From: an uncultured Candidatus Saccharibacteria bacterium
Lineage (GTDB): Bacteria; Patescibacteriota; Doudnabacteria; UBA920
Length of the DNA stretch: 64,000 nucleotides
Reading direction: 5' to 3'
Assembly: GCA_964612745.1 (NCBI GenBank)
Contig: CAZTCH010000001.1
Span: forward strand, 77,387 to 141,386
Of the stretch, positions 4,466-57,150 are shown one piece after another. The notes beneath the pieces were generated by a model, which did not search any database, was not told the DNA's origin, and saw only the letters and a list, made by a program, of their open reading frames with translations. The translations under genes were made by a program, and so were the position numbers. Positions within the stretch are counted from its first letter, which is position 1; the number at the start of each line of letters is the position of its first letter.

Positions 4466-4466
4466 T

Positions 4467-6623: not shown

Positions 6624-6631
6624 GAGACGCT

Positions 6632-27359: not shown

Positions 27360-29444
27360 ATGCACCATTCCGTAATTGTCATTCCTACATATAACGAAAA
27401 AGAGAACATTGGTACGATTGTGCCAATGATTTTTTCTGTTGCAAAAAAACTGGAACGAGAGGCGATAATTTCAATTCTGGTAGTAGACGATACTTCTCCA
27501 GACGGTACGGCAGATGTGGTTCGGGCAATGCAAGCGCAGTATCCAAACTTGCAACTAATTCTGGGGAAAAAAGAAGGCTTGGGGAAAGCCTACGTCCGAG
27601 GAATGCATCATGCGTTAACGGTCTTGGGTGCGGACTCAGTATTTGAAATGGACGCAGATTTGTCCCACGACCCAGAGGCAATCCCAAGCATGCTCAGAGA
27701 AATTTTGTCTGACAGTGCCGATTTTGTGATTGGTTCACGATACGTTTCTGGTGGGTCTATCCCACTCGAGTGGCCTTTCATGCGCAAGCTCAATTCATGG
27801 GCAGGAAACTTTGTTGCTCGCGTAGTTATTGGGCTCTATGGTATTCGTGATTGTACCGGTGGTTTTCGTGCCATTCGTGCTTCGGTGCTTCAAGCTGTGC
27901 ATTTAGAAGAAATTCCAGTTGCAGGCTACGCTTTTCAAGTTAGCTTATTGCAACGAGCTGTTTTGGTTGGAGCACGGATATTGGAAGTACCAATTACTTT
28001 TCGTGACCGCGAAATTGGTGTGTCAAAGTTGCGACTGAAAGATCAAATTGAATTTATTTATAAATCCTTTACGTTACGCATTCATAGCCTGACTGTGCGC
28101 TACGGATTATTTGCATTACTATTTTCTGTTGTTGTAGCATTTTTCGCTGCTGTATACATGTCTACTGAGCACGTTGCTGCGTTTGTGGTAGGTATTTCTG
28201 TTTTGCTGTTGGCACAAGGTGTGTGGAATTTGTGGCTCATGATCCAAGTGTGGGATAACCCACATAAGACAGGTGAATATGGTTCACCAAAGACATATGA
28301 AGCGCCACAGTATTCTTTTACCGCACTGTTGCCTGCGCTACACGAAGAAGTAGTGATTGGAGATACTATTCGCGCTGTGCATGCAGTGGATTACCCAAGC
28401 CACTTAAAGCAGATTTTAGTCATTTGCCGGTACGACGACACGGGGACAATTGCAGCAGCAGAACAAGCGATTGCAGGTCTGGGCGAAGGTGCCAATGCGA
28501 AAGTACTGGTATATAACCGTATCCCAAGCAACAAGCCGAAACAAATGAACTTTGCTTTGGCAGAAACCACTGGGGATGTCGTTGTACCATTTGACGCAGA
28601 AGATGGACCACACAAAGATTTGTACCACATTGTAAACACCACCATGATTCGCCAGAATGCAGATGTTGTGCAGTCTGGGGTACAGCTCATGAACTTTGAA
28701 AGCAACTGGTATTCGGTGTACAACGTGTTGGAGTATTTCTTCTGGTTTAAGTCTGTCCTTCCGTATTTTGCTGCGCGTGGTGCAGTGCCTTTGGGTGGAA
28801 ACACCGTATTCTTTAAACGAAAGTGGCTAGAACGAATTGGTGGCTGGGACGAAGAATGTTTAACAGAAGATGCAGAAATTGGGATGAAGTTGTCCCAAGC
28901 TGGTGCGCGTATTCGAGTTATTTACGAAGAACAGCACGCAACCCAAGAAGAAGCACCGCTTTCACTGGGCGTGTTTATTAAGCAACGTACCCGTTGGCAC
29001 CAAGGGTTCATGCAAGTTATTGGCAAGGGTCAATGGCGTAAGTTTTTGACCGTAAGGCAGCAAGCATTGTCTTTGTACGTACTGGCATGGCCAGAAATCC
29101 AAGCGGTGTTGTTCTTGTACGCTTTTGTCTCTGCGGTTGCTTTGTTCTTTATTAAGCTTCCTGCATGGGCGACGGTCGTTTCTATATTGCCGTTGTATTT
29201 ACTCGTTGTATTGTTTGTTGTGTGTGTTGTTGCACTCTACCAATTTTGCCAAAGTTACAACAAGAAGTTTCCGTGGTGGATGCCGTTTAAAATGTTAGTA
29301 GCATTTTATCCTTTTCAGATTTTACTTGGAGTATCTGCGCTGCGAGCTGTGTACCGACTATTGAAAGGTTCAACTGGTTGGGAAAAGACTGTGCACGTTG
29401 GGGCACACCGTGTGAGCGTACCGCTAGAAGTACCGTTAGAATAA
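27360..29444 (+). CDS. Polyprenol-phosphate mannose synthase (Dpm1/Ppm1-like GT2) fused to a membrane domain and a second GT2 domain
   Basis: N-terminus VIVIPTYNEKENI, DDTSPDGT, MDADLSHDP, DCTGGFR matches DPM synthase. TM region at residues about 240-300. Second GT2 with FDAEDGP DXD motif. C-terminal TM helices. Confidence 0.75.
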   Translation: MHHSVIVIPTYNEKENIGTIVPMIFSVAKKLEREAIISILVVDDTSPDGTADVVRAMQAQYPNLQLILGKKEGLGKAYVRGMHHALTVLGADSVFEMDADLSHDPEAIPSMLREILSDSADFVIGSRYVSGGSIPLEWPFMRKLNSWAGNFVARVVIGLYGIRDCTGGFRAIRASVLQAVHLEEIPVAGYAFQVSLLQRAVLVGARILEVPITFRDREIGVSKLRLKDQIEFIYKSFTLRIHSLTVRYGLFALLFSVVVAFFAAVYMSTEHVAAFVVGISVLLLAQGVWNLWLMIQVWDNPHKTGEYGSPKTYEAPQYSFTALLPALHEEVVIGDTIRAVHAVDYPSHLKQILVICRYDDTGTIAAAEQAIAGLGEGANAKVLVYNRIPSNKPKQMNFALAETTGDVVVPFDAEDGPHKDLYHIVNTTMIRQNADVVQSGVQLMNFESNWYSVYNVLEYFFWFKSVLPYFAARGAVPLGGNTVFFKRKWLERIGGWDEECLTEDAEIGMKLSQAGARIRVIYEEQHATQEEAPLSLGVFIKQRTRWHQGFMQVIGKGQWRKFLTVRQQALSLYVLAWPEIQAVLFLYAFVSAVALFFIKLPAWATVVSILPLYLLVVLFVVCVVALYQFCQSYNKKFPWWMPFKMLVAFYPFQILLGVSALRAVYRLLKGSTGWEKTVHVGAHRVSVPLEVPLE

Positions 29445-29445
29445 T

Positions 29446-32438: not shown

Positions 32439-33188
32439 ATGAAACGCAGTTTATTTCGGTTGCTGCTGGTATTATTGATGAGCACAACTGCTCTCGCACA
32501 ATATCAGATACCTGAAAGAGTAAGCGCAGCGCTCCCTGAGCGCATGTGCAACTCTTGCACAACACAGATTGCGCCACTGACCTGCTCGCCGATTATTGAA
32601 TTTGATTTCTTTAGCGGCAACTCGGGCGGCGATCAACCGCGCCAGCTTGGCCACTTCGTTTTTAACCAGTTTTCCGAAGATTGGAAAACGGAATACTTCA
32701 CGACAGATACATTCACTAACGCTTATGGCAAGACAGTAATCGGCCGTGACGAAGCGAAAAGTTGGGTGAAGTATAAAATCAGCATGAGTGGCTGGGTAGA
32801 GATTGAAGCCTGGCTCCAAGGGGCGAGTGTCCAAACAAGCGGAGAAAACCATTTTAGCGGGGGCGCTATCGAAATGCGCCTACGCGGGTATAAGAACACT
32901 CTTGGCGGCTTTACAGTTGTTGAGATGTGGTCTTCACCAGAGGGTTTTCGTCTCAGTTCATTTGGTTCGACATTGAATTATGGGAGCTTCGCTGGACTTC
33001 CCAGTATGCAATGTTGGAGCAATATGTCCATTAATGCGCCGGCGTACGGCGGATACAACCGGGTTGTTTTGAATCAAATCTTAAACGACTGGGACATGTT
33101 GTATTACCGGCCAGTCGAAGTTGGAAAGCCTGGGACGGACGTTTTGTTCAATTTTTTACCGGTTAAGATCACTTTTCCTGGCTGTTAA
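32439..33188 (+). CDS. Secreted protein of unknown function
   Basis: Signal peptide MKRSLFRLLLVLLMSTTALAQ. 249 aa, Cys-containing, no known motif. Confidence 0.5.
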   Translation: MKRSLFRLLLVLLMSTTALAQYQIPERVSAALPERMCNSCTTQIAPLTCSPIIEFDFFSGNSGGDQPRQLGHFVFNQFSEDWKTEYFTTDTFTNAYGKTVIGRDEAKSWVKYKISMSGWVEIEAWLQGASVQTSGENHFSGGAIEMRLRGYKNTLGGFTVVEMWSSPEGFRLSSFGSTLNYGSFAGLPSMQCWSNMSINAPAYGGYNRVVLNQILNDWDMLYYRPVEVGKPGTDVLFNFLPVKITFPGC

Positions 33189-33459
33189 AATCTGCGCGTT
33201 TCGCAGGGGGTGGTTTAGCTATTTGGTTTGTTAGTTAGTGTTAAAACTAATGTAACAACCAAAGATGCTAAGCCACCCACCTTTTCCATTTCTGGTTAGT
33301 AGAGGTTTGTGCGTAAAGTATTTGCGCATGTACCTGTATTCAAACCAGTATATAGTTTCAAAAAACAAATATACACGTTTGCATGCAAAACTTCGACGCC
33401 TATGAAGTTATAGGATTGTTGGAGTTGTCCTTTCTCAATTCTCAGGGGGAGAAAAAGAA

Positions 33460-34236
33460 ATGAAACAGTTCATTGTTTCAGTATTGCTTTGCGTGCTTCT
33501 ATCGTTTGCTGTATTTGCACAAAGCTCAATCTTAGAGCGTCGTGTAGTAAATGCAGCGAGCTTTGAAGACGCAGTAGCGCCTGGGTCAATCGCAGCGATT
33601 TTTACCAATCCTACGCTTCATACCTCGGCTTCACTCAAAAACACGAAAATTACAATCACGGATCGCAGAAAAATTGCGCATTCGATTGAGACGATTTTCT
33701 TTTCAGCGCCTACGCAGACAAATTTCTACATTCCGAAAAATGTGGCAACTGGCCCTGCGGAGGTTGAAGTAAAAACTGGTGCTTTTGAGATTTCAAAAAC
33801 TACGATAATCCTAACGCATATCGCACCTGGCCTGTTTTCCGCAAACTCCAACGGTGTTGGGGTTCCGGCGGCGGTTCTACTGCGTGTGTCACCTGGAGGA
33901 GTACAGACGTACATCCCTCTGTTTCGCTTTAGTGAAATAGAGCGGAAGTATGTACCTATTCCTATTGACCTTGCGACTGACAAAGTATTTTTGGTTCTGT
34001 TTGGAACTGGAATACGGAACAATCCTGCTTTAGAGGATGTAAAAGTCTTTTTGGGAAACGTGAGCGTGCCAGTGTATTACGCTGGCTCACAAGGACTACC
34101 AAGTACCGAACGGGAATTTTTGGGGTTGGATCAAGTTAATGTGTTGTTGCCGACAAACTTACCCTCTGGGCAGTATGTCGTGTCAATGAACACCGCCAAT
34201 CTGCCAACTAACAACCTTGTCATACAAGTTCGCTAA
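33460..34236 (+). CDS. Secreted protein with Ig-like domain resembling TIGR03437 (Soli_cterm) family
   Basis: Signal peptide. Motif RRVVNAASFEDAVAPGSIAAIFTN is typical of that Ig-like family. Confidence 0.5.
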   Translation: MKQFIVSVLLCVLLSFAVFAQSSILERRVVNAASFEDAVAPGSIAAIFTNPTLHTSASLKNTKITITDRRKIAHSIETIFFSAPTQTNFYIPKNVATGPAEVEVKTGAFEISKTTIILTHIAPGLFSANSNGVGVPAAVLLRVSPGGVQTYIPLFRFSEIERKYVPIPIDLATDKVFLVLFGTGIRNNPALEDVKVFLGNVSVPVYYAGSQGLPSTEREFLGLDQVNVLLPTNLPSGQYVVSMNTANLPTNNLVIQVR

Positions 34237-34248
34237 AGGAGCATCGTC

Positions 34249-34917
34249 ATGAACAGATTATTCGCAGCCGTACTTCTTAGTGCGGTATGTTTTTATTCAT
34301 CTTCAGAGCAAGTATCTGCGCAAACAGCTCCTACGATAAGAATCACAGTCGTCAATGATTCTGAAGGAGTAAATAGGACCGCTCAGGGGCCGGTGCTTAC
34401 AGTGCCTGCGTATGGTAAGGTGATCGCTATTTCAAACGCAGAAGCATACGGAAGATTGCCCAACGGTGGGTACGTGTGGAACGACGACCCTTCTAACCCA
34501 TCACCGGGGATGAACGAAGAGTTGGTGGCGTTTATTGCCTGGGTCACCCCAAATATTTTTGACGTATGGCTTTCGGTGGAAAAGTTTTATCTTCCAACGA
34601 AAGACATTTTTCCAAGAGGCTTTGGCCCAGAGGTTGCCCTGCGTGTGACAATAAGCCACAAAGATGGCAAGCCACAGCTTCTTGTTCAAAACAAGCAGAC
34701 TAAAATGGGGTTCCTGCAGTTTAACGTTCCAGGTGGTGATGCAACATTACCTCAAACGTTGAAAGACAGGCAACTCTCGGGGGTTGTGTGGACAACGCCT
34801 GACGGTACACAATTGATTTGTGGTCTTCAAACAAGTCCCGAAACATATACAGCCATGAGGATTAAAAAACCTGATGGTAAGTTTGTTGACTTTGTCACAC
34901 TCACTCTTGAGCCGTGA
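34249..34917 (+). CDS. Secreted protein of unknown function
   Basis: Signal peptide MNRLFAAVLLSAVCF. 222 aa. Confidence 0.5.
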   Translation: MNRLFAAVLLSAVCFYSSSEQVSAQTAPTIRITVVNDSEGVNRTAQGPVLTVPAYGKVIAISNAEAYGRLPNGGYVWNDDPSNPSPGMNEELVAFIAWVTPNIFDVWLSVEKFYLPTKDIFPRGFGPEVALRVTISHKDGKPQLLVQNKQTKMGFLQFNVPGGDATLPQTLKDRQLSGVVWTTPDGTQLICGLQTSPETYTAMRIKKPDGKFVDFVTLTLEP

Positions 34918-35123
34918 TTCGGTTGTTTCATTTCAAAACAAAAGCGATTGCTAGTTCTGGGGTGTTTATCCTAGAGTTAGTAATCGCTTTTTCCTTTTTT
35001 ACTCTAGCCAGAGGTGCGAACTTCTGGCATACTGAAGGCAAACAAACAGTGCTGGTAAGCGAAGTGCTTGCCCATGCACTGTTTATTTATTTTCAAAATA
35101 AAATCACATACTGAGGAGGGGTG

Positions 35124-35297
35124 ATGACTAAAAGAGAGATAGTATTTTGGTTTGTTGTTTTGTTCTTGCTAACGGCGCTGTTCTGCTTTGGGCCGTTAGT
35201 GGTTCAGATGATGATTGAATCTAAGAATACGAGCGCTGCTATGCCTTCGTATACGTTCTCAACACAAAAGGGTTACCCTTGCGCTTTGCATGGGTAA
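35124..35297 (+). CDS. 57-aa small membrane peptide
   Basis: Strong SD (gaggagg) 4-5 nt upstream of the ATG, one TM helix. Stop lies inside the terminator hairpin. Under 60 aa, so absent from the ORF track. Confidence 0.35.
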   Translation: MTKREIVFWFVVLFLLTALFCFGPLVVQMMIESKNTSAAMPSYTFSTQKGYPCALHG

Positions 35298-35306
35298 CCC
35301 TTTTTC
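35268..35306. terminator. Bidirectional terminator hairpin (aaagggttaccc...gggtaaccctttt)
   Basis: 12-bp stem with T-run on the + strand and A-run (T-run on the minus strand). Serves the convergent genes. The same gggttaccc motif recurs at 55664-55700. Confidence 0.6.
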
Positions 35307-35317
35307 TTTTTTATACT

Positions 35318-37423
35318 TTATTTTATTGTTGTGCCGGTGCGGTAGGTGACGAATTCTGCTTGGTTTACGGTGACTACTTTTGCGGGGTCAATGTTCAGTC
35401 TGGTTGCAGCTGCAGGTGTGATGTAGCGTTTAACGCTGCCTTCTATTTTGTAGACTCTGGCGTTGTTCGCTACTTTTATGTATTCCACATCGTCGTACGA
35501 GTCGAGGATTTCTTGGTTTACCATAACCACGTCTTCCCATTTCCCGCCGTAGCTCAAGAATATTTGTGCATTGAGTACGGGCATTTTTGCGCCCCACAAG
35601 GTTACCCAGTATACAGTTGGGTCACCATCTACTCGCACATATTTACCCATTGGGGAGTTTGGGGTGTTGCTACCAATCGTAAATGCCTGTTTTGCTGTTT
35701 CGCTTAAGGTAAGTGCGAATGAGTCTAAAGTTGCTTGGGTCAAGCGATAGGTGCCAGTTTGTCCAATGAGCACTGTTGGGTTTAGGGTGAAGCCAGTAGC
35801 TGTACTAAATGCATTCACGCCGTATTTTGTTTGCAAGTAGTTTGCAACGTCGGTGCGCACTTGTGTTGGTGCCCAAGATGTAGCAACCACTGCGCCGGTT
35901 ATCGTGTTCTGAAACGAAAAGACAATGACCGGAGTAAGGATGTTTGCGCTATTGTACGCCCAGCCAGACAATGTAGTCGCGCTGACGCTGTCTACATATC
36001 CTTCTGCTACTTTGGCGGTAGGAGTGGTTGCAGGCTTCACGACAAATGTAAATACTTTTTGAGCGGTTGCGCCAGTAGCATCAGTGACTTTTACGGGTAC
36101 TTGGTAAGTGCCGGCAAAGGGCATTATTTGTCCGGAGTTTATCGAAACAAATGTACCATTGCTATTTAGCTGCGTGTAGCAGCAAGGGTAGGCGTTGTAT
36201 TGCCCCGAAAGAGTGCTCCAAGTGTATGGAGCGGTGCCCCCAGAAGCAGCAAGGGAGATGCTGTACGCTGCACCAACCATGCCATCTTGGAGTTGGTCAG
36301 GAGTGGTAATGGCAAGTATTTGCGAGGTTGTACCGGTAATAGTGAATGTTGGGCCGTAGAATGGCGTTGCAGGTGTGCTGGTGACTGGTGTGCCATTGTT
36401 TTGTAGCGCGTCTAACCCAAGTCGCATAGTGCCAGCACTCGCTGCGCCAATAGATGCACTGACTTCGAGGCTCACGGTGGTGTTCGCCGGAATAGTCAGG
36501 GCAGGAGAAAAGGTAATGGTGGCATAGCGAGTAGCACCTTCTACCATGTTCAGTGTGATCGCTGTCGTGCCGACAAATGCAGTGCGATCTTTGTACAGTC
36601 TCATGTTGCTAAACTGGTCGCGGCTCGCAGAGTCAGAAACAACACGCAGAGAAGTGACAGTTGCAGGAGTGTTCCCAGCGCGTAGTCCGAAGTTGGCAAA
36701 AGTGTAGTTGCTGGTGCTGGCAGGGATAACGGTGGCAACACCAGACAATGACTCGCTCAGAGTAAGGGTACCGTTCGCGAGAGTGCCCGCAGCTGCGACT
36801 GGAATGCTTCTGCTACTGCTAGTGCCAGATTGGTTTGTAACGGCGAACGTAGCAGTACCTGTGCCATTACCCAGCAGTACATTGATTTGTGTTGCGCTTT
36901 GGAAGCTAATGGTACCAGTGATAGTCCCAGTAGAAACGAGCTGGTTACCGGTTGCTGCAAACGTGCCATAGAGCACGACGAATGCGCCGCTAGTTGCTTG
37001 CGAGTTGTTGTACTGTGGAGTGGCGTTTGGGTCAAAGCCTTGAATGCCGGTGAGTGTTGGGGCAGTGCTTGTGGTCCCACTGGCATTTACTTTCCAAGGG
37101 ATAATACTGTACACACCAAGACCACTTCCGTCAGTCACGTGGACACCAAGTTCAAACGTGCCTGCTTGGGTTGGGGTGCCACTAAACACGCCAGAGCTTG
37201 CAAGCGTCATGCTTGTTCCGGGGTGTGTCAGGTACCATTTTTCAAAAACAATAGTGCCACTTCCAGTTGCAGAAAGCTGGGAGGAGTACGCTTGACCGAC
37301 GGTGCCGTCTGGTAAACTTGTGGTGACTACCATGGGGGCAGCAAGGGCAGCGCGAGGTACGCCGGCGAGAGTCAAGGCGCACACCAGCGAAAATAGCCCA
37401 AAAACCTTTAGAAATCTGTGCAT
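35318..37423 (-). CDS. Large secreted cell-surface protein with He_PIG (putative Ig) domains, Thr/Ser/Gly-rich
   Basis: Signal peptide. Two motifs LPDGTVGQAYSSQLSATGSG and GMVGAAYSISLAASGGTAPYTW are typical of PF05345. 701 aa, beta-rich. Confidence 0.6.
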   Translation of the reverse strand: MHRFLKVFGLFSLVCALTLAGVPRAALAAPMVVTTSLPDGTVGQAYSSQLSATGSGTIVFEKWYLTHPGTSMTLASSGVFSGTPTQAGTFELGVHVTDGSGLGVYSIIPWKVNASGTTSTAPTLTGIQGFDPNATPQYNNSQATSGAFVVLYGTFAATGNQLVSTGTITGTISFQSATQINVLLGNGTGTATFAVTNQSGTSSSRSIPVAAAGTLANGTLTLSESLSGVATVIPASTSNYTFANFGLRAGNTPATVTSLRVVSDSASRDQFSNMRLYKDRTAFVGTTAITLNMVEGATRYATITFSPALTIPANTTVSLEVSASIGAASAGTMRLGLDALQNNGTPVTSTPATPFYGPTFTITGTTSQILAITTPDQLQDGMVGAAYSISLAASGGTAPYTWSTLSGQYNAYPCCYTQLNSNGTFVSINSGQIMPFAGTYQVPVKVTDATGATAQKVFTFVVKPATTPTAKVAEGYVDSVSATTLSGWAYNSANILTPVIVFSFQNTITGAVVATSWAPTQVRTDVANYLQTKYGVNAFSTATGFTLNPTVLIGQTGTYRLTQATLDSFALTLSETAKQAFTIGSNTPNSPMGKYVRVDGDPTVYWVTLWGAKMPVLNAQIFLSYGGKWEDVVMVNQEILDSYDDVEYIKVANNARVYKIEGSVKRYITPAAATRLNIDPAKVVTVNQAEFVTYRTGTTIK

Positions 37424-37451: not shown

Positions 37452-39092
37452 TTATTGTACCAGATATTTGGTCACAACAATCCATGTGCCAGAATATGGC
37501 CTGACATCGGCAAAACCGGCTTCGTCGGCCTGCTTCCAATTGCTGGGCACTGTTGGTTTGTTGCTCCCAAACGCGTTGGTCCATAACAGCCACACGGTGT
37601 CACCTGTTTTTACTGCATCGGCAAAGGAGGGGAGTAAATCTGCATCTGTGAGAATGGCGGTACCTACAAAGTGAGGCAGATTTTTTACAGATGTATTGCC
37701 GCCAGAGTAGAGCATGGGTCTGGGCCATTCTGCAGTCCGGTCCAAGGTTCGTATTTGTGCGGGCGGTGCGTCATCGCTTAAATCTTCGAGGCTGTATCGC
37801 GAAGACGACATGGTAGTGGTTTGGGTGACGATTGCTGCGGGTGGGGTAAGTTGCGATAAGTAGTATTTTAGGTTAAAGAATTCAAAGCTCGTCCCTACAT
37901 AGAGTTTGTCGGTTGGTGTCGCGTGACTCTGTAAGTAGGTCGCAGCTCCAGCCATACCAGTTTTTTTAGTAATGTCTAACTTCTGCCAGTTATTGGCAAA
38001 CACAAGTACACACACAATGGCGTATGCAGCTGTTGCGGTCCAAATAAGCCACGAACGTTTCCACGAGTCTATCCAGAGTGCGAGAGCTGCCAGAAGAAAA
38101 GCTGATGCGTACAAAAAGTATCGCACAAGGTAAACCGAAGAGCTTTGGCCTTTTACAAATGCAAGCAGTGCAAACAGGAGAGAGCCTGCAAAGGGTGCGG
38201 CAAACAGAAATGCCACGAGCCACACGTGAGTATTTTTTTGTTTTTTGAGAAGGAGGGCAAAAATACTGACGAGTACAATGGTGGTAACTGCCAAAGTGAT
38301 TTTGGTCGTTGTTTTTGCAATGTCCGACTCAAGGCCAAATGTGACCTGCCACAGTGTGGAAGGAATGCTCCACCAATTGAGTGGTGGAATCCAATACCCC
38401 GCACCAACTTGTTTAAACTGGAAGATAAACCAATTTGTCCACGGTAAAAACAAGAGGATTGTGGTCAGGTATCCAGTGGCGAGTGGTGCGTAGGCGCGTA
38501 TATCTTTTTTGAAATGCACTGCGGTGTAGAGTAAGGCGTACACGCATGCAGCTACCACAGAAAAAAGTAAGTAGTAGTGGGTGAGCGCAGCAATCCCTGC
38601 CAGAGCTCCAAACGCGACAAATAATTTGAATTTATTTTTTATTTCCGTGCTGTTCAGGGCTTTTGCCAGCACCCACGCCATGCTTACCGCGAGAAATGCG
38701 CCAAATGTGTACATACGTGCTTCGGTGGCGTATTGGATTTGAAATGGGTTGACGACTATAGCAAGTGCGGCGATTGTCGCAGCTCTGGGGCTTTTAAAGA
38801 TATCTCGCACAAATCCGTACGTAGTTGCTGCTGTTGCCAGCCCAAAGAATACCGAAAAGCCACGCAGGGCGAGCAGTGAGTCGCCAAGCAGCATGCTCCA
38901 TAACCGGAGCGCAACGTAATACGCTGGTGGGTGCACGTCCAGACCGATACGGTAGAACATCTCACCCCACGGGTAGTGAATGAGCAGTGCGGAAAATGCT
39001 TCGTCATGCCACAAAGAAATGCTCGTGTTGTGGTAGAGGCGAAGGAAAAGACCAAAGGCAAGGATAGAGACGAGAGCGAGGTATTTTTTCAT
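37452..39092 (-). CDS. GT-C fold glycosyltransferase family 39 (ArnT/PMT-like)
   Basis: N-terminal TM then a DE motif (LWHDEAFSALL). About 12 TM helices plus a C-terminal soluble domain. Confidence 0.7.
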   Translation of the reverse strand: MKKYLALVSILAFGLFLRLYHNTSISLWHDEAFSALLIHYPWGEMFYRIGLDVHPPAYYVALRLWSMLLGDSLLALRGFSVFFGLATAATTYGFVRDIFKSPRAATIAALAIVVNPFQIQYATEARMYTFGAFLAVSMAWVLAKALNSTEIKNKFKLFVAFGALAGIAALTHYYLLFSVVAACVYALLYTAVHFKKDIRAYAPLATGYLTTILLFLPWTNWFIFQFKQVGAGYWIPPLNWWSIPSTLWQVTFGLESDIAKTTTKITLAVTTIVLVSIFALLLKKQKNTHVWLVAFLFAAPFAGSLLFALLAFVKGQSSSVYLVRYFLYASAFLLAALALWIDSWKRSWLIWTATAAYAIVCVLVFANNWQKLDITKKTGMAGAATYLQSHATPTDKLYVGTSFEFFNLKYYLSQLTPPAAIVTQTTTMSSSRYSLEDLSDDAPPAQIRTLDRTAEWPRPMLYSGGNTSVKNLPHFVGTAILTDADLLPSFADAVKTGDTVWLLWTNAFGSNKPTVPSNWKQADEAGFADVRPYSGTWIVVTKYLVQ

Positions 39093-39378
39093 GGTAACTA
39101 AGTTACAAATACGTAATTCGTAATGCGCAATGTGAAATCAGAATTCAGAACTCCGAAACAAACTCCAATCCACAATCCGCCAAACGGCGGAGGCGGACGA
39201 AATCTAAGTTTTAAACATTGGGATTTATTCTTGATGGGCTCTGTGTATAGTTTACAGTTTTGAGTTGAAGTTTTGCGTTTTGACTTTTGAATTTTGAGTT
39301 ACATTTGTATTTATTTGGGCTTTGTCCGCCAGCTGGCGGATTGGAATTTATTTGAATTTGTTGTTTGTTATTTGGTAT
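39093..39378. repeat. Dispersed intergenic element containing a 52-bp conserved motif (39250-39301) flanked by an internal inverted repeat (ccaatccgcc...ggcggattgg)
   Basis: gtttacagttttgagttgaagttttgcgttttgacttttgaattttgagtta is identical to 44719-44770. Heptamer ttttgNN periodicity. Confidence 0.55.
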
Positions 39379-41190
39379 TTACTGTATTTCATACACTGCC
39401 AACACTGCTTGACCGAATTTGTTGCGCATTTCTGTTTGCAACTTGGCGTTGGGGTAAAATGCTTTAAACTTTTTTACATCGAACATGCTGGATTGGGTGA
39501 AGACCACTTGCATACCAGGGAGTAAGCCGTGAGGGTAGGTTGATTTGCCGCGGATAATGTCGGAAGGGGCAAGCCACGCATCTTCTGGGTCCACTTGCAT
39601 GTACGGCATGTTTTTTGGATTATCGACGCAGTTTGGTACACGGAATGCTTCGGTGCGGTCACAGGCACGTGCGCCATCTACTGTGGTGAGGTAGTCAACG
39701 GTTTGCACAGAAAACTTGTCGAGTACTAAATATGTAGTGTTTCTATCTCCATGCTTTTTCAAGTAGTCACTCACGACTGTTAAGTCACTGCGAAAAGCAA
39801 AATAATTTTCTGGGCTATGTGCTGCACCAATAAAATAGTGGGCGTACGTTTGGATAGGTACCCCAATAAAGAAACACACTGCAAGTATTTGCAAAGAAAT
39901 TTGCACTGCTCGTTCCATGCGCGGGCTGCCATGGGGGTGTTTGGTTACTACGTGCCAGACAAACGACCCAACGGTGTGCAAGCCATATGCGGTGATTATG
40001 AACACTGCAGGAATAGTCCCAATAGCTCTGAGGCCGTGGGGGATTCCTTCTGCAGTCGTAATGACCGGTAAAAGGAAAGAAACGAACCAGCCTGCCAAAA
40101 CAAAGCTTGGGTAATGTCGTTTCTGTTGGATAGGGGAGAACATGTAGCGCAGTGCATTCCAAATCACCAGTAACAACCCAAACGCAAAGAATGGGGAAAC
40201 GAGAGGGGAGAGGAAGGCAAGCCCAGAAATATTGTGTCGCCAGTTTAGGTCGCCTTCGGTAAAGTAGCCAAGAAAACTAACTCGCGTTACTTCCAGTACC
40301 GTGCCAATCAAATCACCCTTGTTCAGTTCTGGGTTAAATACGCTTACTTGGCCGCTTCTACCAATAAAGGCATCTGGGTGTGTGTAAAAATAGTGCGCTA
40401 AAGGAGTTATACAAATCGCAAAAGCAATAATTGCCAGAGCGGTCGCTTTCCAGTATGGCGAAAGAGTGGCAACGAGTCCTCGTTCTTTTAAGTGCGCAAG
40501 GAGTGGCCAAATAATGTACAAAGCAAGCAGTGGGGCGAGTACCCGATAGGCAATGTATGTGTAAAACCCAAGTGCAAAGCTTGCACCGAGCGCAATAGCA
40601 TATGCATATTGTGTTTTGCGAGGTTGGTCGCTTTGGTATGTTTTGAGGAGGAAGAGTACAGTGGCGGTAACAAAGAGCGGAATCATGTTTGCACGAAACG
40701 CAGTGCGAGAAAGTACTACATGCCATGTAGAAGTTGCCATGATAAACGTGGCGAGCAGGGCTACTATATTTGCAGATCCAACAGTTTGCTGCACTTGCTC
40801 TACCAATGTTTGTCTGCCAATTTGTACGGTGCGTTCTGCGTGTGTGTCTTCTTCTCTTCCGACTAGTTTTCTAAACAGAGCCTTTGTGACATAAAAACAA
40901 AGTACTGTGGCGCCAATGCCAACGAGGGCGGAGACGACGTGGTGCGCAAATGGGCTTCTGCCGAATAGCTTTACAGAAGCGTACAAGAAGTAAAAGAATA
41001 AAGCTTCACGACCATTGCCTCGTTCGTAAAACGGCTGGAAGAAGCCTTGGTCCATCGAGTTTATGTCTAGTCCATTTGCTGCTTCGTCAGGGAATAAACC
41101 GCCCGGAAGACTGCCAATATGGTACAGTCGAAAGAATAGAGCAAGGGCAAACGTGAGGATTGTTATGGCGAGAAATATCTTTTTATTCAT
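39379..41190 (-). CDS. GT-C fold glycosyltransferase family 39 (ArnT/PMT-like)
   Basis: N-terminal TM then a DE motif (GLFPDEAANGLD). Polytopic, 603 aa. Confidence 0.7.
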   Translation of the reverse strand: MNKKIFLAITILTFALALFFRLYHIGSLPGGLFPDEAANGLDINSMDQGFFQPFYERGNGREALFFYFLYASVKLFGRSPFAHHVVSALVGIGATVLCFYVTKALFRKLVGREEDTHAERTVQIGRQTLVEQVQQTVGSANIVALLATFIMATSTWHVVLSRTAFRANMIPLFVTATVLFLLKTYQSDQPRKTQYAYAIALGASFALGFYTYIAYRVLAPLLALYIIWPLLAHLKERGLVATLSPYWKATALAIIAFAICITPLAHYFYTHPDAFIGRSGQVSVFNPELNKGDLIGTVLEVTRVSFLGYFTEGDLNWRHNISGLAFLSPLVSPFFAFGLLLVIWNALRYMFSPIQQKRHYPSFVLAGWFVSFLLPVITTAEGIPHGLRAIGTIPAVFIITAYGLHTVGSFVWHVVTKHPHGSPRMERAVQISLQILAVCFFIGVPIQTYAHYFIGAAHSPENYFAFRSDLTVVSDYLKKHGDRNTTYLVLDKFSVQTVDYLTTVDGARACDRTEAFRVPNCVDNPKNMPYMQVDPEDAWLAPSDIIRGKSTYPHGLLPGMQVVFTQSSMFDVKKFKAFYPNAKLQTEMRNKFGQAVLAVYEIQ

Positions 41191-41228: not shown

Positions 41229-41570
41229 GTGACACTCATGACTCAGCATAAATACTATTTCATTTTGTTGTTTCTACTTGCCGTTGTTATACATATCATA
41301 ACATGGCTCTTAATTGTGAGTTATGCACCAACCAGTGGGCAACTCGTTCCAATCCACTACAACGTTATTAGCGGGTACGACGAACTGGGTAGCAGAGCAG
41401 ATTTATTGCAAGTACCAGTGTTTGGGATGCTCGTTGTGGTGGTGAATGCGGTCATTGCGTGGCTGTTTCGTTCAACTGGCCGGTTTGTGGGATCGCTTGC
41501 AGTAGGAGTGGCTTTAGCAGTGTCTCTGGTGTTGTTGCTCAGTACCTTGTTGCTTGTGGTACAAGCTTAA
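41229..41570 (+). CDS. Small membrane protein, unknown function
   Basis: 113 aa, 3 TM helices. tgtataatt -10 at about 41200. Confidence 0.4.
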   Translation: MTLMTQHKYYFILLFLLAVVIHIITWLLIVSYAPTSGQLVPIHYNVISGYDELGSRADLLQVPVFGMLVVVVNAVIAWLFRSTGRFVGSLAVGVALAVSLVLLLSTLLLVVQA

Positions 41571-41591: not shown

Positions 41592-43259
41592 ATGTTTCGT
41601 AAACGCACGCTCACAGAACGTTTTTGGGAAGTACTCCCTGGTTTGCAGTTTTGGTCTGCTTTTTTAGGTGCCATTGCACTTGCAAAGTACCAACCTGTTT
41701 GGGCAGCGTTATTTATTATTTGTTTTGATTTATATTGGGTGCTCAAAGCCTGCAATGTTGGCTTGCACCTGCTTTCCAGTTACCGCAAGTTTCGTGTGCA
41801 TGTAACCATCGATTGGCTTTCGGAAGTACGTGCGATAACGACAGATGTAACGTCGTACATTGCGAAGCTAACACAACAAGCAGAGACGGATACTCGCGTG
41901 GTAGCGAGGCACTACTTTGCGCATGAAGTAGAAAGACTCCAAAAGCTTCTTGCTTCGGGTAAGACGATACGGTCGTACGAAGACATCGTGCATTTGGTGT
42001 TGTTTCCTTTTGTAGACGAGTCGGTAGAAGTGTTGTCTTCGACGTTGGACGCCATGCTCGCAGTGAACTACCCGAAAGAGAAGATCTTTATTATATTGGC
42101 GAGCGAAGGACGCATGGGCGAGCCTGCGCAAGAAACAGCCCGGATACTGAGAGAAAAATACGCCAAGCACTTTGGCAATTTCTTTGTCACCGTGCACCCC
42201 GATGGTTTGGAAGGGGAAATAAAAGGGAAAAGTGCCAATGCGAGCTGGGCTGTGCAAGCAGTTATGCCAGAGTTGGAGCGTTTAGGCATAGCTGTGCCTG
42301 ACTGTATGGTGTCGAACTTCGACAGTGACACGGTGGTGCACCCACAATATTTTGCGCGCGTGACCTACGAGTTTTTGACCGCAGAAAAGCCATATCGTTC
42401 CAGCTACCAACCAATCGCTATCTACAACAACAACATTTGGGACGCACCAGCATTTATTCGGGTGATTAGCGTATCCAACTCTTTTTGGCAGTTTACTGAA
42501 AGCAGCAGGCCAGACCGATTACGTACGTTTAGCTCTCATTCCATGACGCTGCAAGCACTGGTAGAGGTTGGTTTTTGGAAAAAAGATTTGGTGAACGAAG
42601 ACGGGTTTATTTTCTGGCAATGCTACTTGCACTACGAAGGGGATTACTCCGTCGTGCCTTTGTTTATCCCTATTAGCTTGGACACCTGTTTAGCAGAGAC
42701 AACGTGGCAAACGTTTAAGAACCAGTACTTACAAAAGCGTCGTTGGGCGTACAACGTAGAGTATTACCCACACTTAATTTGGCCACTCATACGTTCGAAA
42801 GCGCCATTTTGGGATAAGTTTTTGAAGCTCTACCAGTATGTGGAAGGGAACTTTAACTGGGCAACTGCTAGTGTTTTGATTTCTACGCTCGGACTTTTAC
42901 CACTGTTCTTGGGTGGTCCAGAGTTTTTGGATAGTGTTGTGGCGTACAACTTGCCACACGTGACCCAAACGTTATTGCGCGTGTCGTTGGTGTTTATTTC
43001 TGCGAGTGTGTACGTGAACTTGGTGTTATTACCTCCACGTCCAGCAAAATATGGCCGTTTCCGCAGCGTCATGATGTACTTGCAGTGGTTGCTAGTTCCT
43101 TTTGTGTCACTTATTTTTGGAAGTATTCCTGCGATTGAAGCGCATACACGGTTAATGCTGGGTAAGTATTTAGAGTTCTGGGTGACCCCGAAAGTTCGCA
43201 AAGGGGAGAGTACAGGGTTGACCATGAAAGAAATGCAAAAAGTTGGGGAGAATAAGTAG
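41592..43259 (+). CDS. Membrane-embedded processive family 2 glycosyltransferase (cellulose/chitin synthase-like)
   Basis: Ordered motifs D, DSD (NFDSDTV), ED (NEDGF), and QKRRW (QxxRW), with flanking TM helices. Confidence 0.65.
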   Translation: MFRKRTLTERFWEVLPGLQFWSAFLGAIALAKYQPVWAALFIICFDLYWVLKACNVGLHLLSSYRKFRVHVTIDWLSEVRAITTDVTSYIAKLTQQAETDTRVVARHYFAHEVERLQKLLASGKTIRSYEDIVHLVLFPFVDESVEVLSSTLDAMLAVNYPKEKIFIILASEGRMGEPAQETARILREKYAKHFGNFFVTVHPDGLEGEIKGKSANASWAVQAVMPELERLGIAVPDCMVSNFDSDTVVHPQYFARVTYEFLTAEKPYRSSYQPIAIYNNNIWDAPAFIRVISVSNSFWQFTESSRPDRLRTFSSHSMTLQALVEVGFWKKDLVNEDGFIFWQCYLHYEGDYSVVPLFIPISLDTCLAETTWQTFKNQYLQKRRWAYNVEYYPHLIWPLIRSKAPFWDKFLKLYQYVEGNFNWATASVLISTLGLLPLFLGGPEFLDSVVAYNLPHVTQTLLRVSLVFISASVYVNLVLLPPRPAKYGRFRSVMMYLQWLLVPFVSLIFGSIPAIEAHTRLMLGKYLEFWVTPKVRKGESTGLTMKEMQKVGENK

Positions 43260-43576
43260 GGGGTAAGAGAGAATAGAGAGTAGAGGTTAGAGAATAGTAA
43301 GACAGGAATGAGGAGTTAGGAATTAGGTTGTCGTTCGACCCTGAGCTCACGGCCTAAGGGTAGGGAGTAGTAAAATAAATTCCAAATCTCAAGCACCAAA
43401 TAACAATAAATTCCAAAATCCAAAGTAAAAACTAGTAAGTCAAAACTGTAAACTTTCAATACATTTCAGTTTTGAGTTTACAGTTGCAGTTTTGCGTTTT
43501 GACCTTTCAGTTCTCAGTTTTATGCTTTTATTTAGCATTTAGCATTTAGCACTTAGCACTTAGTACTCGTTCAACT
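43260..43576. repeat. Intergenic heptamer-repeat element (purine arm, 52-bp motif variant at 43467-43522, ttagcat/ttagcac tandem)
   Basis: Direct reading. Same architecture as 39093-39378 and 44633-44930. Confidence 0.55.
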
Positions 43577-44632
43577 ATGAACTACTTACTCTATTGCGGT
43601 ATTGCATGTGTGTTGGCACTGGTGATTACGCCTTTGGTGCGTAAGCTGGCTTTTCGCCTTGGGTGCGTCGATAGACCGCAGGGCGGCAGGCATATTCACA
43701 CGAAAGAAACTGCTTTACTGGGCGGTTTAGCTGTTATCTTCTCTATGGTGTTAGCGGGTGGACTCTATGTGCTTTCTGGTAGTTTTGATTTTTCTGTGGT
43801 TCCTACCAAATTTGTGGTTGGCATTGTCACCGGCGTGTTCCTGCTAGTGTTGGGTGGATTTTTTGATGATAAATATACGCTACCCGCTCGCTACTCGTTT
43901 GTGTTTCCAGCGCTTGCTGCGGCGGCGGTAGTAGCTTCGGGGGTAGGTGTGGGGATCACTATATTGACCAACCCATTTGGTGGCGTAGTCCACTTGGGTA
44001 CTCTGTGGTTGGGTGTGCCAATCTCCGCGGTCTTCGTGTGGTTGTGGATTGTAGGTATGACGTACACCACCAAGCTACTGGACGGCTTAGATGGTTTAGC
44101 TGCAGGAGTGTCGCTCATTGGTGGTTTGGTTATGTTTGCTCTGTCACTCACAGATAAAGTTAACCAACCAGTCACGGCAACCCTGGCAATAATTTTTGTG
44201 GGGGCACTTGCTGGCTACTTGTTTTACGCGTTTAATCCTGCCTCTATCTTTTTAGGTGAAATTGGCAGCACATTTCTTGGCTTCTTTCTCGCGGTGCTCG
44301 CGGTGTTAACGGGAGCAAAAATTGCTACTGCGGTACTTGTGATGGGGATTCCGATTTTTGATGTAGCTTGGGCAATTGTCCGCAGACTCTGGCGACGACA
44401 AAATCCATTTGTGGGGGATAGAGAGCATTTGCATTTTCTGCTACTCGATGCAGGGCTTTCACAGCGACAAGCGGTGTTGGTGTTTTACGCACTTGCAGGC
44501 TTGTTTGGCTTTGTAGCAGTGTTCCTACAAAGCATGGGTAAGCTGGTGGCGCTATTTTTACTTTTGGCAGTCATGGTGGGGATTGTAGGGGCTCTGGCGA
44601 GAGTGTATAGGAAGAAGACTAGTAACGAGTAA
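43577..44632 (+). CDS. Glycosyltransferase family 4 polyprenyl-phosphate sugar-1-phosphate transferase (WecA/MraY family)
   Basis: 351 aa, 10-11 TM helices. The N-terminal pattern and conserved cytoplasmic loops match the MraY/WecA superfamily. Confidence 0.7.
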   Translation: MNYLLYCGIACVLALVITPLVRKLAFRLGCVDRPQGGRHIHTKETALLGGLAVIFSMVLAGGLYVLSGSFDFSVVPTKFVVGIVTGVFLLVLGGFFDDKYTLPARYSFVFPALAAAAVVASGVGVGITILTNPFGGVVHLGTLWLGVPISAVFVWLWIVGMTYTTKLLDGLDGLAAGVSLIGGLVMFALSLTDKVNQPVTATLAIIFVGALAGYLFYAFNPASIFLGEIGSTFLGFFLAVLAVLTGAKIATAVLVMGIPIFDVAWAIVRRLWRRQNPFVGDREHLHFLLLDAGLSQRQAVLVFYALAGLFGFVAVFLQSMGKLVALFLLLAVMVGIVGALARVYRKKTSNE

Positions 44633-44930
44633 CTAGTTGCGAGTTGCGAGAAAGATTAAGGAAAAGAGAGTAGAGAGTAGAGAATAGAGAGTAGAACTCA
44701 AAACTGTATTGCATTGAAGTTTACAGTTTTGAGTTGAAGTTTTGCGTTTTGACTTTTGAATTTTGAGTTAAGCTTGTGTTTATTTGTGCTTTTGATATTG
44801 TAATTTATTTGATATTTCGTGCTTGTTATTTGGTGCTTCTTGCAACCTACCCTCTATTTCTTCTAACTCTTCTAACTCTTCTCCTTCTAAAACTCTCCTA
44901 AAACTGGGCATTTTGGCTTACCACCCCTAA
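44633..44930. repeat. Intergenic heptamer-repeat element with the 52-bp motif (44719-44770)
   Basis: Purine arm gagagtagagaatagag, the exact 52-bp motif, a T-rich middle, and a pyrimidine arm ctctatttcttctaactcttc. Confidence 0.55.
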
Positions 44931-46199: not shown

Positions 46200-46562
46200 T
46201 TAGTGAATGCCGGAGATTAGCTTGTTGAGCATTTTCTGGATTTCTATGGTTAGTGGTAGTGCCTTATCGTTTGGAACTGTTGGATACATCATTTGTATAA
46301 TAAGAAGCTGAGTTTCCACTTCCGCAGCAGAAGCATCTGCAATTTTTAGGAATTGCTTAAACTCAGCTCTGCCATTTCTTTTGAAACCCTCTGCAATGTT
46401 TGAGGGTATAGAGATTGCTGCCCTTGTGATTTGAGCACTGAGAATGTATGTTTCTGTGCGAGGGAGCATATTTGTGATCTTGTAGATTTCTCTTACAAGG
46501 ACCATACCTTTTTGCCAGACAACTAAGTCTTTAAAATTGGTAATAGGCATATTTGTAATCAC
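46200..46562 (-). CDS. Four-helix-bundle protein (TIGR02436 family, as often found in rRNA intervening sequences)
   Basis: 120 aa. Motif ISIPSNIAEGFKRNGRAEFKQFLKIADASAAEVETQLLI. Confidence 0.6.
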   Translation of the reverse strand: MITNMPITNFKDLVVWQKGMVLVREIYKITNMLPRTETYILSAQITRAAISIPSNIAEGFKRNGRAEFKQFLKIADASAAEVETQLLIIQMMYPTVPNDKALPLTIEIQKMLNKLISGIH

Positions 46563-46575
46563 TAAGCACTAAGAA

Positions 46576-47985
46576 CTAAGCACTTTCTTCTGTTGGGGGC
46601 GCAGACACGCTATTCATCACCGCTTGTGGGCTGGTGTCGAACGTGCGGTCGAGGTTTTTGAAGCTCGCTTTTTCTGCGTCAAAGAACAAGTCGACTTGGC
46701 CGACTGGTCCGTTTCTATGCTTGCGAACATGGATTTCTGCTACGTTTGGTCGTCTGGAGTCGCGACCCTTGTACATGTCTTCACGGTAAATAAACATAAC
46801 GACGTCCGCATCTTGTTCAATAGATCCAGATTCACGAAGGTCAGATAGCTGTGGCACTTTGTCTGGTCTGTTTTCTACGTTACGAGACAGCTGGGAGAGT
46901 GCGAGTACTGGTACGTTTAACTCACGAGCCAGAATTTTTAAGTTACGAGAAATTTCGCTTACTTCTTGTACGCGGTTGTCGCCACCTGCGTTCTTACCTT
47001 GCATAAGCTGCAAGTAGTCAATTACCAGCAAGCTAATACCGTGCTCGCTTTGCAAACGTCTGGCTTTGGTGCGGACTTCCATAACGTTGGCACCAGCAGC
47101 ATCATCAATATAAATAGGAGCTTCGGACAGCGCACCCATAGCTTCGCCCAGAAGGCTAAAGTCGTCGTCGGTCAGGTGTCCTGTTCGAATTTTAAATAAG
47201 TTTACGCCACTCTGGGACGAGAGGAGACGGTCTACCAATTCGTCCTTACCCATTTCTAGAGAAAATATAGCTACTGGCTTTTTGCTGTGCACACCGACAT
47301 GGCGAATAATGTCCAACGCGAGGGACGTTTTACCCATGGAAGGACGAGCAGCCAAAATAACAAGGTTGGATTTTTGCAGCCCACTCAGGAGTTTGTCCAA
47401 GTCCAAAAAGCCGGTTGGGACACCACGGAGTGCGCCTGCGTCACGGTGGAGCTCGTCAATTCGCTCAAACGTTTCGTGCAAAATAGTATTAATTGCAACA
47501 AAGTTTTGCTTTAAGTGTTTTTGCGAAACGCCATACAACCGTTGTTCTGCTGTGTCTAAAATGTCTTCTACTTCACCTTCTTCGCGGTAGGCGAGTCGGG
47601 TAATTTCTGTGGCGCTATCTATCAGTCTTCTGAGTGTTCCTTTTTTTCTGACAATGCCAGCGTAGTGCACCACGTGAGCAGAGGTTGGCACGGCATTTAC
47701 CAGACTGGTGATGTAGCCAGCGCCACCAGCACGTTCCAAAAGTCCTTGCTCTTCCAGCAAGTTAGACACGGTCAAGATGTCTATGGAAATGCTTTTTTCG
47801 AACAAATCTAAAATGGCACCGTACACCGTTCTGTGCCGTACATCGTAAAAATCTTCTTGAATAACTAAATCCGCCACTTTAATAATGGCGTCTTTGTCGA
47901 GCATTAAACAACCCAAAACAGATTGCTCTGCTTCGAGGTTTTGTGGGGGGAGTTTGTCCAGTGCGGAAATGGTGACTTGGTTCAT
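46576..47985 (-). CDS. dnaB: Replicative DNA helicase DnaB
   Basis: 469 aa. Walker A ARPSMGKTS and conserved DnaB N-terminal and C-terminal domains. Confidence 0.9.
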   Translation of the reverse strand: MNQVTISALDKLPPQNLEAEQSVLGCLMLDKDAIIKVADLVIQEDFYDVRHRTVYGAILDLFEKSISIDILTVSNLLEEQGLLERAGGAGYITSLVNAVPTSAHVVHYAGIVRKKGTLRRLIDSATEITRLAYREEGEVEDILDTAEQRLYGVSQKHLKQNFVAINTILHETFERIDELHRDAGALRGVPTGFLDLDKLLSGLQKSNLVILAARPSMGKTSLALDIIRHVGVHSKKPVAIFSLEMGKDELVDRLLSSQSGVNLFKIRTGHLTDDDFSLLGEAMGALSEAPIYIDDAAGANVMEVRTKARRLQSEHGISLLVIDYLQLMQGKNAGGDNRVQEVSEISRNLKILARELNVPVLALSQLSRNVENRPDKVPQLSDLRESGSIEQDADVVMFIYREDMYKGRDSRRPNVAEIHVRKHRNGPVGQVDLFFDAEKASFKNLDRTFDTSPQAVMNSVSAPPTEESA

Positions 47986-48193
47986 ACGGAAGTAGTGCTA
48001 AGTGCTCAGTGCTCAGTGTCTAGTCAGGAAGAAGACGAAGGAACACTCCAGTTGTCTGTATGGATTGTAGCAATTTACCGGTAGAATAGCTATTGACTTT
48101 TGTGCACATTTTCTGCATAATACAAGAAAATGCAATGGTTTTTTTGCAAGCGCAAATAAAGCTGTTGTCCCCAAAAATCTGTGGAGGAGAATT

Positions 48194-53266: not shown

Positions 53267-53530
53267 TTTTTATTTCTGTAGTGAACTAGATATGTAAGTA
53301 TTGTATCAAGAAAGTTTACTTGGGGGAATGGAGAAGGCGATAGAGAATAGAGAGTAGAGAGTAGAGAATAGTAAGATAGAAATAAGGAGTTAGGAATTAG
53401 AAATTAGTAACGAGTAACCAGTAGCTAGTAACGAGACAGAAAAAATTGAAAATTAAAAATTAAAAATTATATTCTCTCTAACTCTTCTATTTCTTCTAGC
53501 TTCCTAATACCTAGAAAGCTGAAAAGCTAA
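53267..53530. repeat. Intergenic heptamer-repeat region (purine arm gagaatagagagtag, then aaattaaaaatt, then pyrimidine arm)
   Basis: Direct reading. Confidence 0.5.
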
Positions 53531-56982: not shown

Positions 56983-57150
56983 AAGCTTCTTAGCTTGCTA
57001 GAAGCAGAAGAAATAGAAGAAATAGAAGAGTTAGAAAAAGGCGCTTAGAGATTGGTTTTTCTACTCTCCCCGCACTTTGCGGGGTCTCGATACTGCATCG
57101 GGGCTAATCTCTACTCTCTACTCTCTATTCTCTCGTTATTTACTCCTAAT
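56983..57150. repeat. Intergenic heptamer repeats (purine arm agaagaaatagaag, pyrimidine arm tctactctctattctc)
   Basis: Direct reading. Confidence 0.5.

Follow-up and report, generated by a model that had tools for sequence, protein, structure and literature searches.

A divergent cellulose-synthase-like membrane glycosyltransferase with a small three-helix neighbour in a Doudnabacteria contig

The locus and its principal genes

The stretch of DNA considered here (hereafter the window) comprises 64,000 nucleotides from an uncultured Candidatus Saccharibacteria bacterium, placed by GTDB in Patescibacteriota, Doudnabacteria, UBA920, and corresponds to positions 77,387 to 141,386 of the forward strand of contig CAZTCH010000001.1 (NCBI GenBank assembly GCA_964612745.1). 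Our subject is a plus-strand open reading frame (ORF) at 41592..43259, encoding a membrane-embedded, cellulose-synthase-like glycosyltransferase of family 2 (GT2) of 555 residues. It is preceded, at a distance of 21 nt, by a small ORF on the same strand (41229..41570), whose product of 113 residues has three predicted transmembrane (TM) helices and is, by hydropathy and position, a candidate accessory subunit. Downstream, beyond a spacer of 317 nt (43260..43576), a further plus-strand ORF (43577..44632) encodes a WecA/TagO-like polyprenyl-phosphate sugar-1-phosphate transferase of 351 residues, which belongs to a GT4 Pfam family and the MraY superfamily. An earlier note on this DNA had described a processive beta-glycan synthase standing next to a WecA/MraY-family priming transferase, the two perhaps feeding GT-C enzymes upstream. 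Both genes lie exactly where it had placed them, and with the same lengths.

Family, motifs and fold of the GT2 protein

The GT2 protein belongs to a divergent and uncharacterised subfamily of the cellulose-synthase-like membrane GT2s, which is widely conserved, cut short at the C-terminus and accompanied by a small protein that is conserved as well. Its match to Pfam PF13632 (Glyco_trans_2_3) is weak, yet above the cutoff (E 1.6e-8, 35 bits against 27), so that the Pfam assignment proposed as a check in the earlier note was obtained. NCBIfam assigns no equivalog to this protein or to the WecA-like one, and a poly-N-acetylglucosamine synthase of the PgaC/IcaA type was rejected, since TIGR03937 scores 19.1 bits where its cutoff asks for 422.3. 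When the PDB was searched with the single sequence, no match was returned even at E values up to 10, and the family profile matched BcsA at no better than E 0.08. Close homologues are nevertheless numerous (1793); the best 120 of them are 66–99% identical and 551–580 residues long (nearly all 551–566), and their source names, where given, are Candidatus Doudnabacteria or Patescibacteria. A profile search covering 1.84 billion cluster representatives recovered 2202 clusters (50% identity) at E<=1e-3, of which 412 reached E<=1e-30; the matches mostly run from end to end. The family is found mostly in Patescibacteria, including Saccharibacteria, and has in addition a branch in Micrococcales, whose members in Brevibacterium, Leucobacter and Pseudoclavibacter are named just 'hypothetical' or 'glycosyltransferase family 2'. 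We found no paper on this GT2 family in Patescibacteria or Saccharibacteria.

Two side observations concern the history of the family. Micrococcales members share 45–49% identity with those of Saccharibacteria, as against about 30% with those of Doudnabacteria (sequences P0190, P0277, P0282, P0292, P0319, P0324 and P0394 compared with P0356, P0364, P0386 and P0391; loci L083, L096 and L095), and a rough neighbour-joining tree places the Micrococcales branch as sister to Saccharibacteria, nested in Patescibacteria sequences. These identities and the tree suggest that the gene has passed between epibionts and their actinobacterial hosts. In two other members (P0138, 672 residues; P0172, 652 residues), an in-frame GxxExxY / PD-(D/E)XK domain (PF13366) lies inside the GT2 and breaks the family match into four stretches; it may be a mobile insertion.

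The motifs were counted in a 109-sequence family alignment, the members of which are mostly 25–45% identical to the window protein. The earlier note had read a D, DxD, ED, QxxRW series, of which the last three motifs are near-invariant, while its first Asp (D142, in FVDES) is not conserved, the position being Lys in 38 members, Asn in 31 and Asp in only 8. The conserved acidic residues nearby are E143 (106/109) and E172 (42105..42107; Glu in 106/109), the latter placed by the family alignment and by hhalign against BcsA, and standing in LASEGR, where the family consensus is LAxEER. The profile alignment sets E172 opposite the second Asp of the 'DDG' motif with which BcsA binds uridine diphosphate (UDP); a literal DD(G) is absent, and Glu is a conservative change. 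The segment G212-K-S-A-N216 (42225..42239), aligned with AKAGN of BcsA, corresponds to the KAG(N) motif for UDP-sugars and has the family form G-K-[GS]-[AS]-N (K213 in 104 and N216 in 102 members). The DxD metal/diphosphate motif, D244-S-D246 (42321..42329), aligns with DCD of BcsA and has its two Asp residues in 107 and 104 sequences, respectively. The ED motif, E336-D337 (42597..42602), aligns with TED of both BcsA and PgaC and contains the putative catalytic base; D337 is present in 108 sequences, and the position before it is Glu in 89 and Asp in 17. Finally, the QxxRW motif, Q381-K-R-R384-W385 (42732..42746), aligns with QRIRW of BcsA and QRLRW of PgaC, with Q381 in 108, R384 in 105 and W385 in 104 members. 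Near-invariant as they are across the family, these motifs did not arise as chance matches.

Beyond the motifs of the earlier note, the family alignment revealed a gating-loop motif of the FxVTxK type near the C-terminus, F529-W-V-T-P-K534 (43176..43193), which takes the family form (F/Y)xVTxK: F or Y opens it in 104 sequences, V is present in 80 (with I in another 8), and the T and the K are kept in 89 and 105, respectively. Its distance from QxxRW is 148 residues, compared with 124 in E. coli BcsA (QRIRW to FNVTAK). An FxVTxK motif is not known from PgaC. A hyaluronan, chitin or NodC-type synthase was considered and set aside: the translation holds no WGT tripeptide and the family has FxVTxK. 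In BcsA and CesA, FxVTxK comes after the interface helix IF3 and makes contact with UDP, and neither BcsA nor CesA8 is active without it, whereas hyaluronan synthases (HAS) and chitin synthases have WGTR/KG at the place that FxVTxK occupies in cellulose synthases (PMC10592267). Among the capsular polysaccharide synthases of Mycoplasma, the glucan synthases have a DD/DxD/KAG/ED/FxVTxK/QxxRW motif set (PMC11658790), and the KAG-like and FxVTxK motifs, as aligned here, are those of the set reported for glucan synthases.

Profile comparison places the GT2 protein among membrane-integrated synthases of the processive type, the class of BcsA, CesA and Csl (PF13632, COG1215). The family profile aligns by hhalign with E. 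coli BcsA at E 2.6e-11 over 242 columns, with every motif in register, and with PgaC at E 2.5e-10 over 321 columns, C-terminal TM helices included. The ArnC/GtrB/DPMS class of polyprenyl-phosphate GT2 enzymes was rejected, the comparison with E. coli ArnC giving a probability of 3.5% over 20 columns. The earlier note had allowed that the protein might group with non-processive families once aligned; with respect to ArnC-type enzymes it does not, and the FxVTxK loop points the same way as the alignments. An AlphaFold model from the diverse 109-sequence alignment reached pLDDT 95 and pTM 0.94 and was used in preference to one from 29 close sequences, which was poor (pLDDT 69). In both sequence (hhalign) and structure searches, the best matches are polysaccharide synthases.

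The flanking TM helices described in the earlier note are likewise present, hydropathy and the model placing helices at about 7–33, 35–70, 406–440, 449–479 and 489–522. The first two span the membrane and are followed by cytosolic helices (75–121), the GT-A domain and a helix at 371–401; the TM helices at 406–440 and 449–479, the long helix 489–522 and the FWVTPK loop complete the chain. In the model, QKRRW sits on helix 371–401, an amphipathic, IF2-like interface helix with a mean hydropathy of -0.93. Stretches rich in Lys and Arg occur in the loop ahead of helix 489 and in the tail after K534; because of these flanks, helix 489–522 is read as an IF3-like interface helix, and by the positive-inside rule the gating loop is probably cytoplasmic. 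The protein ends 21 residues past K534 and so has no counterpart of the two channel helices found beyond the gating loop in BcsA and CesA. A search for a PilZ or BcsB partner, suggested in the earlier note, found neither in the GT2 protein or among the ORFs of at least 150 residues scanned in the window, a set that takes in the plausible genes of this size.

Gene neighbourhood and its conservation

By hydropathy, the TM segments of the small upstream protein lie at about 12–30, 62–80 and 92–110. A BLAST homologue stands directly upstream of GT2 in 59 of 78 related loci, and in the distant loci L086, L087, L088, L090 and L095 an ORF of 116–131 residues abuts or overlaps the GT2 start. As L095 is of the Saccharibacteria type, the arrangement, often with overlapping genes, spans Doudnabacteria to Saccharibacteria. 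When a hidden Markov model of the small protein was run against all ORFs of ten distant loci, its top four matches were ORFs immediately upstream of GT2 (L086, E 2e-17; L087, 4e-6; L088, 0.002; L095, 0.04). It did not detect the upstream ORF of L090, which is counted on its position and on a similar three-TM layout in the alignment. No Pfam family was assigned to the small protein (DUF1648 appeared weakly in 4 of 29 members), and the PDB gave no meaningful match. Since the small ORF reaches further into the distant loci than the WecA-like and GT-C genes do, the stable core of the locus consists of the small protein and the GT2.

The gene downstream was correctly identified in the earlier note as a polyprenyl-phosphate sugar-1-phosphate transferase: its product matches PF00953 (Glycos_transf_4) at E 1e-26 and E. 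coli WecA by BLASTP at 1e-16, with 25% identity over 297 residues. MraY was rejected as its identity (TIGR00445, 44.8 bits against a cutoff of 192; BLASTP 1e-7, compared with 1e-16 for WecA). In common with WecA and TagO, it has the DD, DGxDGL and HxH motifs, and the corresponding D97-D98, D169-G-x-D172-G-L and H284/H286 are invariant in all 70 sequences compared (69 orthologues and the window protein). It departs from WecA in a third motif, FLGE(G/S)GS, which has Glu in 67 of the 70 where FMGD has Asp. Because its score for TIGR02380 (WecA), 90.8 bits, lies far below the equivalog cutoff of 326, the gene is best filed, on its sequence, as WecA/TagO-like.

In same-clade loci with room downstream, the WecA-like gene is adjacent to or overlaps GT2 in 53 of 66; in another 12 it is found no more than 4 kb away. 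Among ten distant loci, it is adjacent in L086 and L087, where GT2 identity is 40–42%, and not in the other eight, which include all Saccharibacteria and Micrococcales loci examined; in one distant locus (L081), a GT4 gene lies 6 kb from GT2. A functional link between the two genes, as drawn in the earlier note, is thus supported within the lineage but not in most distant loci, and the WecA-like gene is a lineage-specific member of the operon.

The spacer between the two genes is indeed filled with repeats, as the earlier note had stated: Tandem Repeats Finder and a repeat finder show period-7 arrays of AGAGAAT, AGGAATT and ATTTAGC in 43260–43576. Heptamer arrays also occupy many other intergenic spacers of the window, so that these repeats are a genome-wide trait and not special to the GT2/WecA locus. 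Such arrays were recorded at 10460–10528, 22472–22946, 39256–39300, 43268–43563, 44665–44769, 46556–46584, 47994–48018, 53340–53469 and 57104–57133, and their units vary (CAATACG, CGAATTA x9.9, AGTTTTG x6.6 at two separate sites, ATTTAGC); a perfect 93-nt repeat, present 2.3 times, lies at 22593–22810. In the closest relatives (L003–L006, L026), the spacer between GT2 and the WecA-like gene measures 58–89 nt, compared with 317 nt here. A promoter and terminator scan of the spacer was uninformative overall, giving one weak promoter-like site (43499–43526) and no terminator-like site.

Upstream of the small ORF, on the minus strand, lie two GT-C glycosyltransferases: a divergent PMT-like protein of 603 residues (39379..41190; PF02366, E 1.8e-6) and a PMT_2 protein of 546 residues (37452..39092; PF13231, E 1.3e-12). 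The divergent GT-C is present in all 68 close loci with upstream room, and in L086 and L087 a UvrD-type helicase takes the place of the GT-C genes. We regard the latter as neighbours of the operon. The proposal that GT2 and the WecA-like enzyme feed these enzymes found no support, since the GT-C genes are lost at 40% GT2 identity and a Dpm1-like domain occurs elsewhere in the window. GT-C enzymes of the PMT_2 type use polyprenyl-monophosphate sugars made by GT2s of the Dpm1/GtrB/ArnC type; for this reason, the Dpm1/GtrB-type domain (PF00535) in residues 6–178 of the ORF at 27360–29444 is a better candidate supplier than the GT2 studied here or the WecA-like enzyme.

That ORF belongs to a second glycan cluster (24705–32130, i.e., 24.7–32.1 kb), which comprises an F5/8-type-C protein (24705–25958), a GH5 cellulase on the minus strand (26015–27280), the ORF itself, a fusion of 694 residues that joins the Dpm1/GtrB-like GT2 to a second TM-flanked GT2 with ED and QRTRW, and, as its last gene, a fusion of 894 residues in which a GH8 (BcsZ-family) domain is joined to a PMT_2 GT-C (29446–32130). 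Pfam models of synthases match this cluster far better than they match the target GT2. Between the two glycan clusters, the region 32439–37423 encodes three secreted proteins of 222–258 residues, with an N-terminal signal-like segment and no Pfam match, and, on the minus strand (35318–37423), a Thr/Ser/Ala-rich surface protein of 701 residues with a He_PIG Ig-like domain; these secreted and surface proteins are possible targets of GT-C glycosylation. Elsewhere in the window, RecR and DnaB flank a '23S rRNA-intervening sequence protein' of 120 residues (46200–46562, minus strand; PF05635, E 4.8e-32), which occurs at this position in only 4 of 80 related loci. A partial peptidoglycan cluster at 1884–8248 contains MurD, FtsW, a DUF4012 protein of 718 residues and MurJ; it follows that lipid II is made in this organism, with the WecA-like gene standing apart from the cell-wall cluster.

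A proposed two-part synthase and its alternatives

We propose that the small protein (41229–41570) and the GT2 (41592–43259) act together as a two-part glycan synthase in the membrane, of the same type as the cellulose synthases BcsA and CesA, a reading to which we assign a probability of about 0.5. According to this proposal, the GT2 would bind a UDP-sugar through E172, GKSAN, the DxD motif and the C-terminal FxVTxK loop, D337 would act as the catalytic base, and the growing beta-linked chain would be held on W385 of QxxRW. The chain would be extended repeatedly and pushed through a channel at the membrane interface, so that processivity and export are both part of what we infer. Because the GT2 stops after the gating loop and has no equivalent of the last two BcsA helices, the small three-TM protein may supply the missing channel helices in trans. 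The WecA-like transferase of this lineage may further produce a polyprenyl-diphosphate-linked N-acetylhexosamine (polyprenyl-PP-HexNAc) as lipid primer or anchor for the polymer, in a manner resembling the synthase-dependent O-antigen route that uses WbbF.

Comparison with known systems shows both how far the likeness reaches and where it ends. The GT2 shares about 14–16% identity with BcsA, from which it differs in that the DDG position has Glu in place of Asp, that two TM helices rather than four stand at the N-terminus, and that TM7, TM8 and a PilZ domain are missing; nor are BcsB, BcsC or BcsZ adjacent to it, a conserved small three-TM partner being found there instead. In size and in the order of N-terminal TM helices, GT2 domain and C-terminal TM helices, it resembles PgaC and IcaA, and the two-gene set of a synthase and a small membrane protein recalls PgaC with PgaD and IcaA with IcaD. 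The small partner here lies upstream, whereas theirs lies downstream, and it has three TM helices and no similarity to PgaD; PgaA and PgaB are not present. Capsular homopolysaccharide synthases of Mycoplasma, which make glucan, galactan or glucofuranan, are GT2 proteins without PilZ and with 3–6 TM helices (PMC11658790). Going by their published description, they are likewise membrane GT2s of minimal-genome bacteria; the organisms differ, and that description mentions neither a small upstream partner nor a WecA-like neighbour. In Salmonella O:54, WecA acts with the synthase WbbF, which glycosylates and translocates the chain linked to undecaprenyl phosphate (PMC2841628). That route, again as described in the literature, also pairs a polyprenyl-phosphate HexNAc-1-phosphate transferase with a membrane GT2 synthase, while the operon in the window is without a WbbE-like adaptor transferase and without a ligase. 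Bacteria of the kind studied here are not known to have an outer membrane or lipopolysaccharide.

Several observations weigh against a two-part synthase. The GT2 has about four predicted TM helices, none of them beyond the gating loop (model and hydropathy), and does not have the six-helix TM channel of cellulose-synthase-type synthases; the global TM-scores of its model to BcsA and HAS in Foldseek are low (0.38–0.49). The second-best structural match is PcManGT of Pyrobaculum calidifontis (PDB 6YV7), with 322 of its 346 residues aligned, an enzyme that uses guanosine diphosphate mannose and is described as having a 'minimal cellulose-synthase-like fold'. It is reportedly non-processive, with a 'half tunnel' (work of Gandini et al. 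in J Mol Biol, 2020), and its high rank means that the fold by itself cannot establish processivity. The part assigned to the small protein is deduced from its position, and in sequence that protein shows no similarity to PgaD. In Micrococcales loci, neither the small ORF nor the WecA neighbour is found, so that neither partner is obligatory for every member of the family. The synteny block of Doudnabacteria continues into L21, RecR and DnaB, and part of the conservation described above is therefore plain genome collinearity.

This collinearity, together with the lack of adjacency between GT2 and the WecA-like gene in distant loci, Saccharibacteria-type and Micrococcales ones included, agrees with the idea that the two genes are mere neighbours and that the WecA-like enzyme starts an independent wall polymer, for example, a teichoic-acid-like one. 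The 317-nt spacer with its weak promoter-like site, which separates the genes in the window, fits this explanation, and BcsA-type synthases are not generally known to need a lipid primer. In many loci, however, the stop and start codons overlap or lie a few bases apart, which suggests translational coupling, and adjacency is kept at 40–42% GT2 identity, where the GT-C genes have already been replaced. On this question, which is distinct from that of what the GT2 itself does, we consider independent neighbours possible, with the odds somewhat against them. The resemblance to PcManGT allows a different account, in which the GT2 adds one or a few sugars to the polyprenyl-PP-HexNAc of the WecA-like enzyme in a partial tunnel, and other proteins flip and transfer the product. 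PcManGT is not known to export a polymer. Unlike it, the window GT2 has a UDP-type gating motif, is longer by about 200 residues and carries two additional TM helices at its N-terminus. In processive cellulose synthases, QxxRW serves to hold the growing chain and FxVTxK to gate UDP. Both motifs are almost invariant in the family, and the distant loci in which the WecA-like gene is not adjacent (eight out of ten) tell against a substrate supplied by that enzyme; we regard the addition of one or a few sugars, the main rival of the two-part synthase, as rather unlikely.

Motifs of the QxxRW type are found in lipid glycosyltransferases too, ceramide glucosyltransferase among them; bacteria of the Candidate Phyla Radiation (CPR) remodel scavenged lipids; and the window yielded no secretion partner. 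The GT2 might accordingly be imagined to glycosylate a membrane lipid (diacylglycerol or similar), in the manner of GT21 or processive lipid glycosyltransferases with (Q/R)xxRW, the WecA-like gene being unrelated. Its sequence, however, has no Pfam GT21 match, its best matches are the polysaccharide synthases named above, the FxVTxK loop and KAG-like motif are typical of glucan synthases, and a multi-TM layout separated synthases from TM-less lipid GT2s in the Mycoplasma study (PMC11658790). A lipid substrate thus appears very improbable. The two-part synthase can also be extended into a wider and much more speculative scheme, which we think unlikely to hold as a whole: a split synthase widespread in Patescibacteria, whose channel is completed in trans, which is sometimes primed on polyprenyl-PP-HexNAc by a co-transcribed WecA-like enzyme and makes a main surface or attachment polymer of these epibionts, and which has been exchanged as a module between Saccharibacteria and their Micrococcales hosts.

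The genomes of CPR bacteria, or Patescibacteria, are tiny; the bacteria live fixed to other cells, and the chemistry of their surfaces is almost unknown. If the GT2 makes and exports a beta-glycan, the polymer could be the matrix or adhesin by which these cells stay on their hosts, and a synthase that ends at its gating loop and borrows channel helices would, if real, widen the range of cellulose-synthase-like architectures. If the GT2 is instead a single-sugar transferase, nothing would set the locus apart from ordinary operons for envelope glycosylation. The role of the GT2 could be tested in a tractable way through its homologues in cultured Brevibacterium and Leucobacter. Such an enzyme is not surprising in kind, yet it provides a concrete and testable handle on the surface glycans of CPR bacteria.

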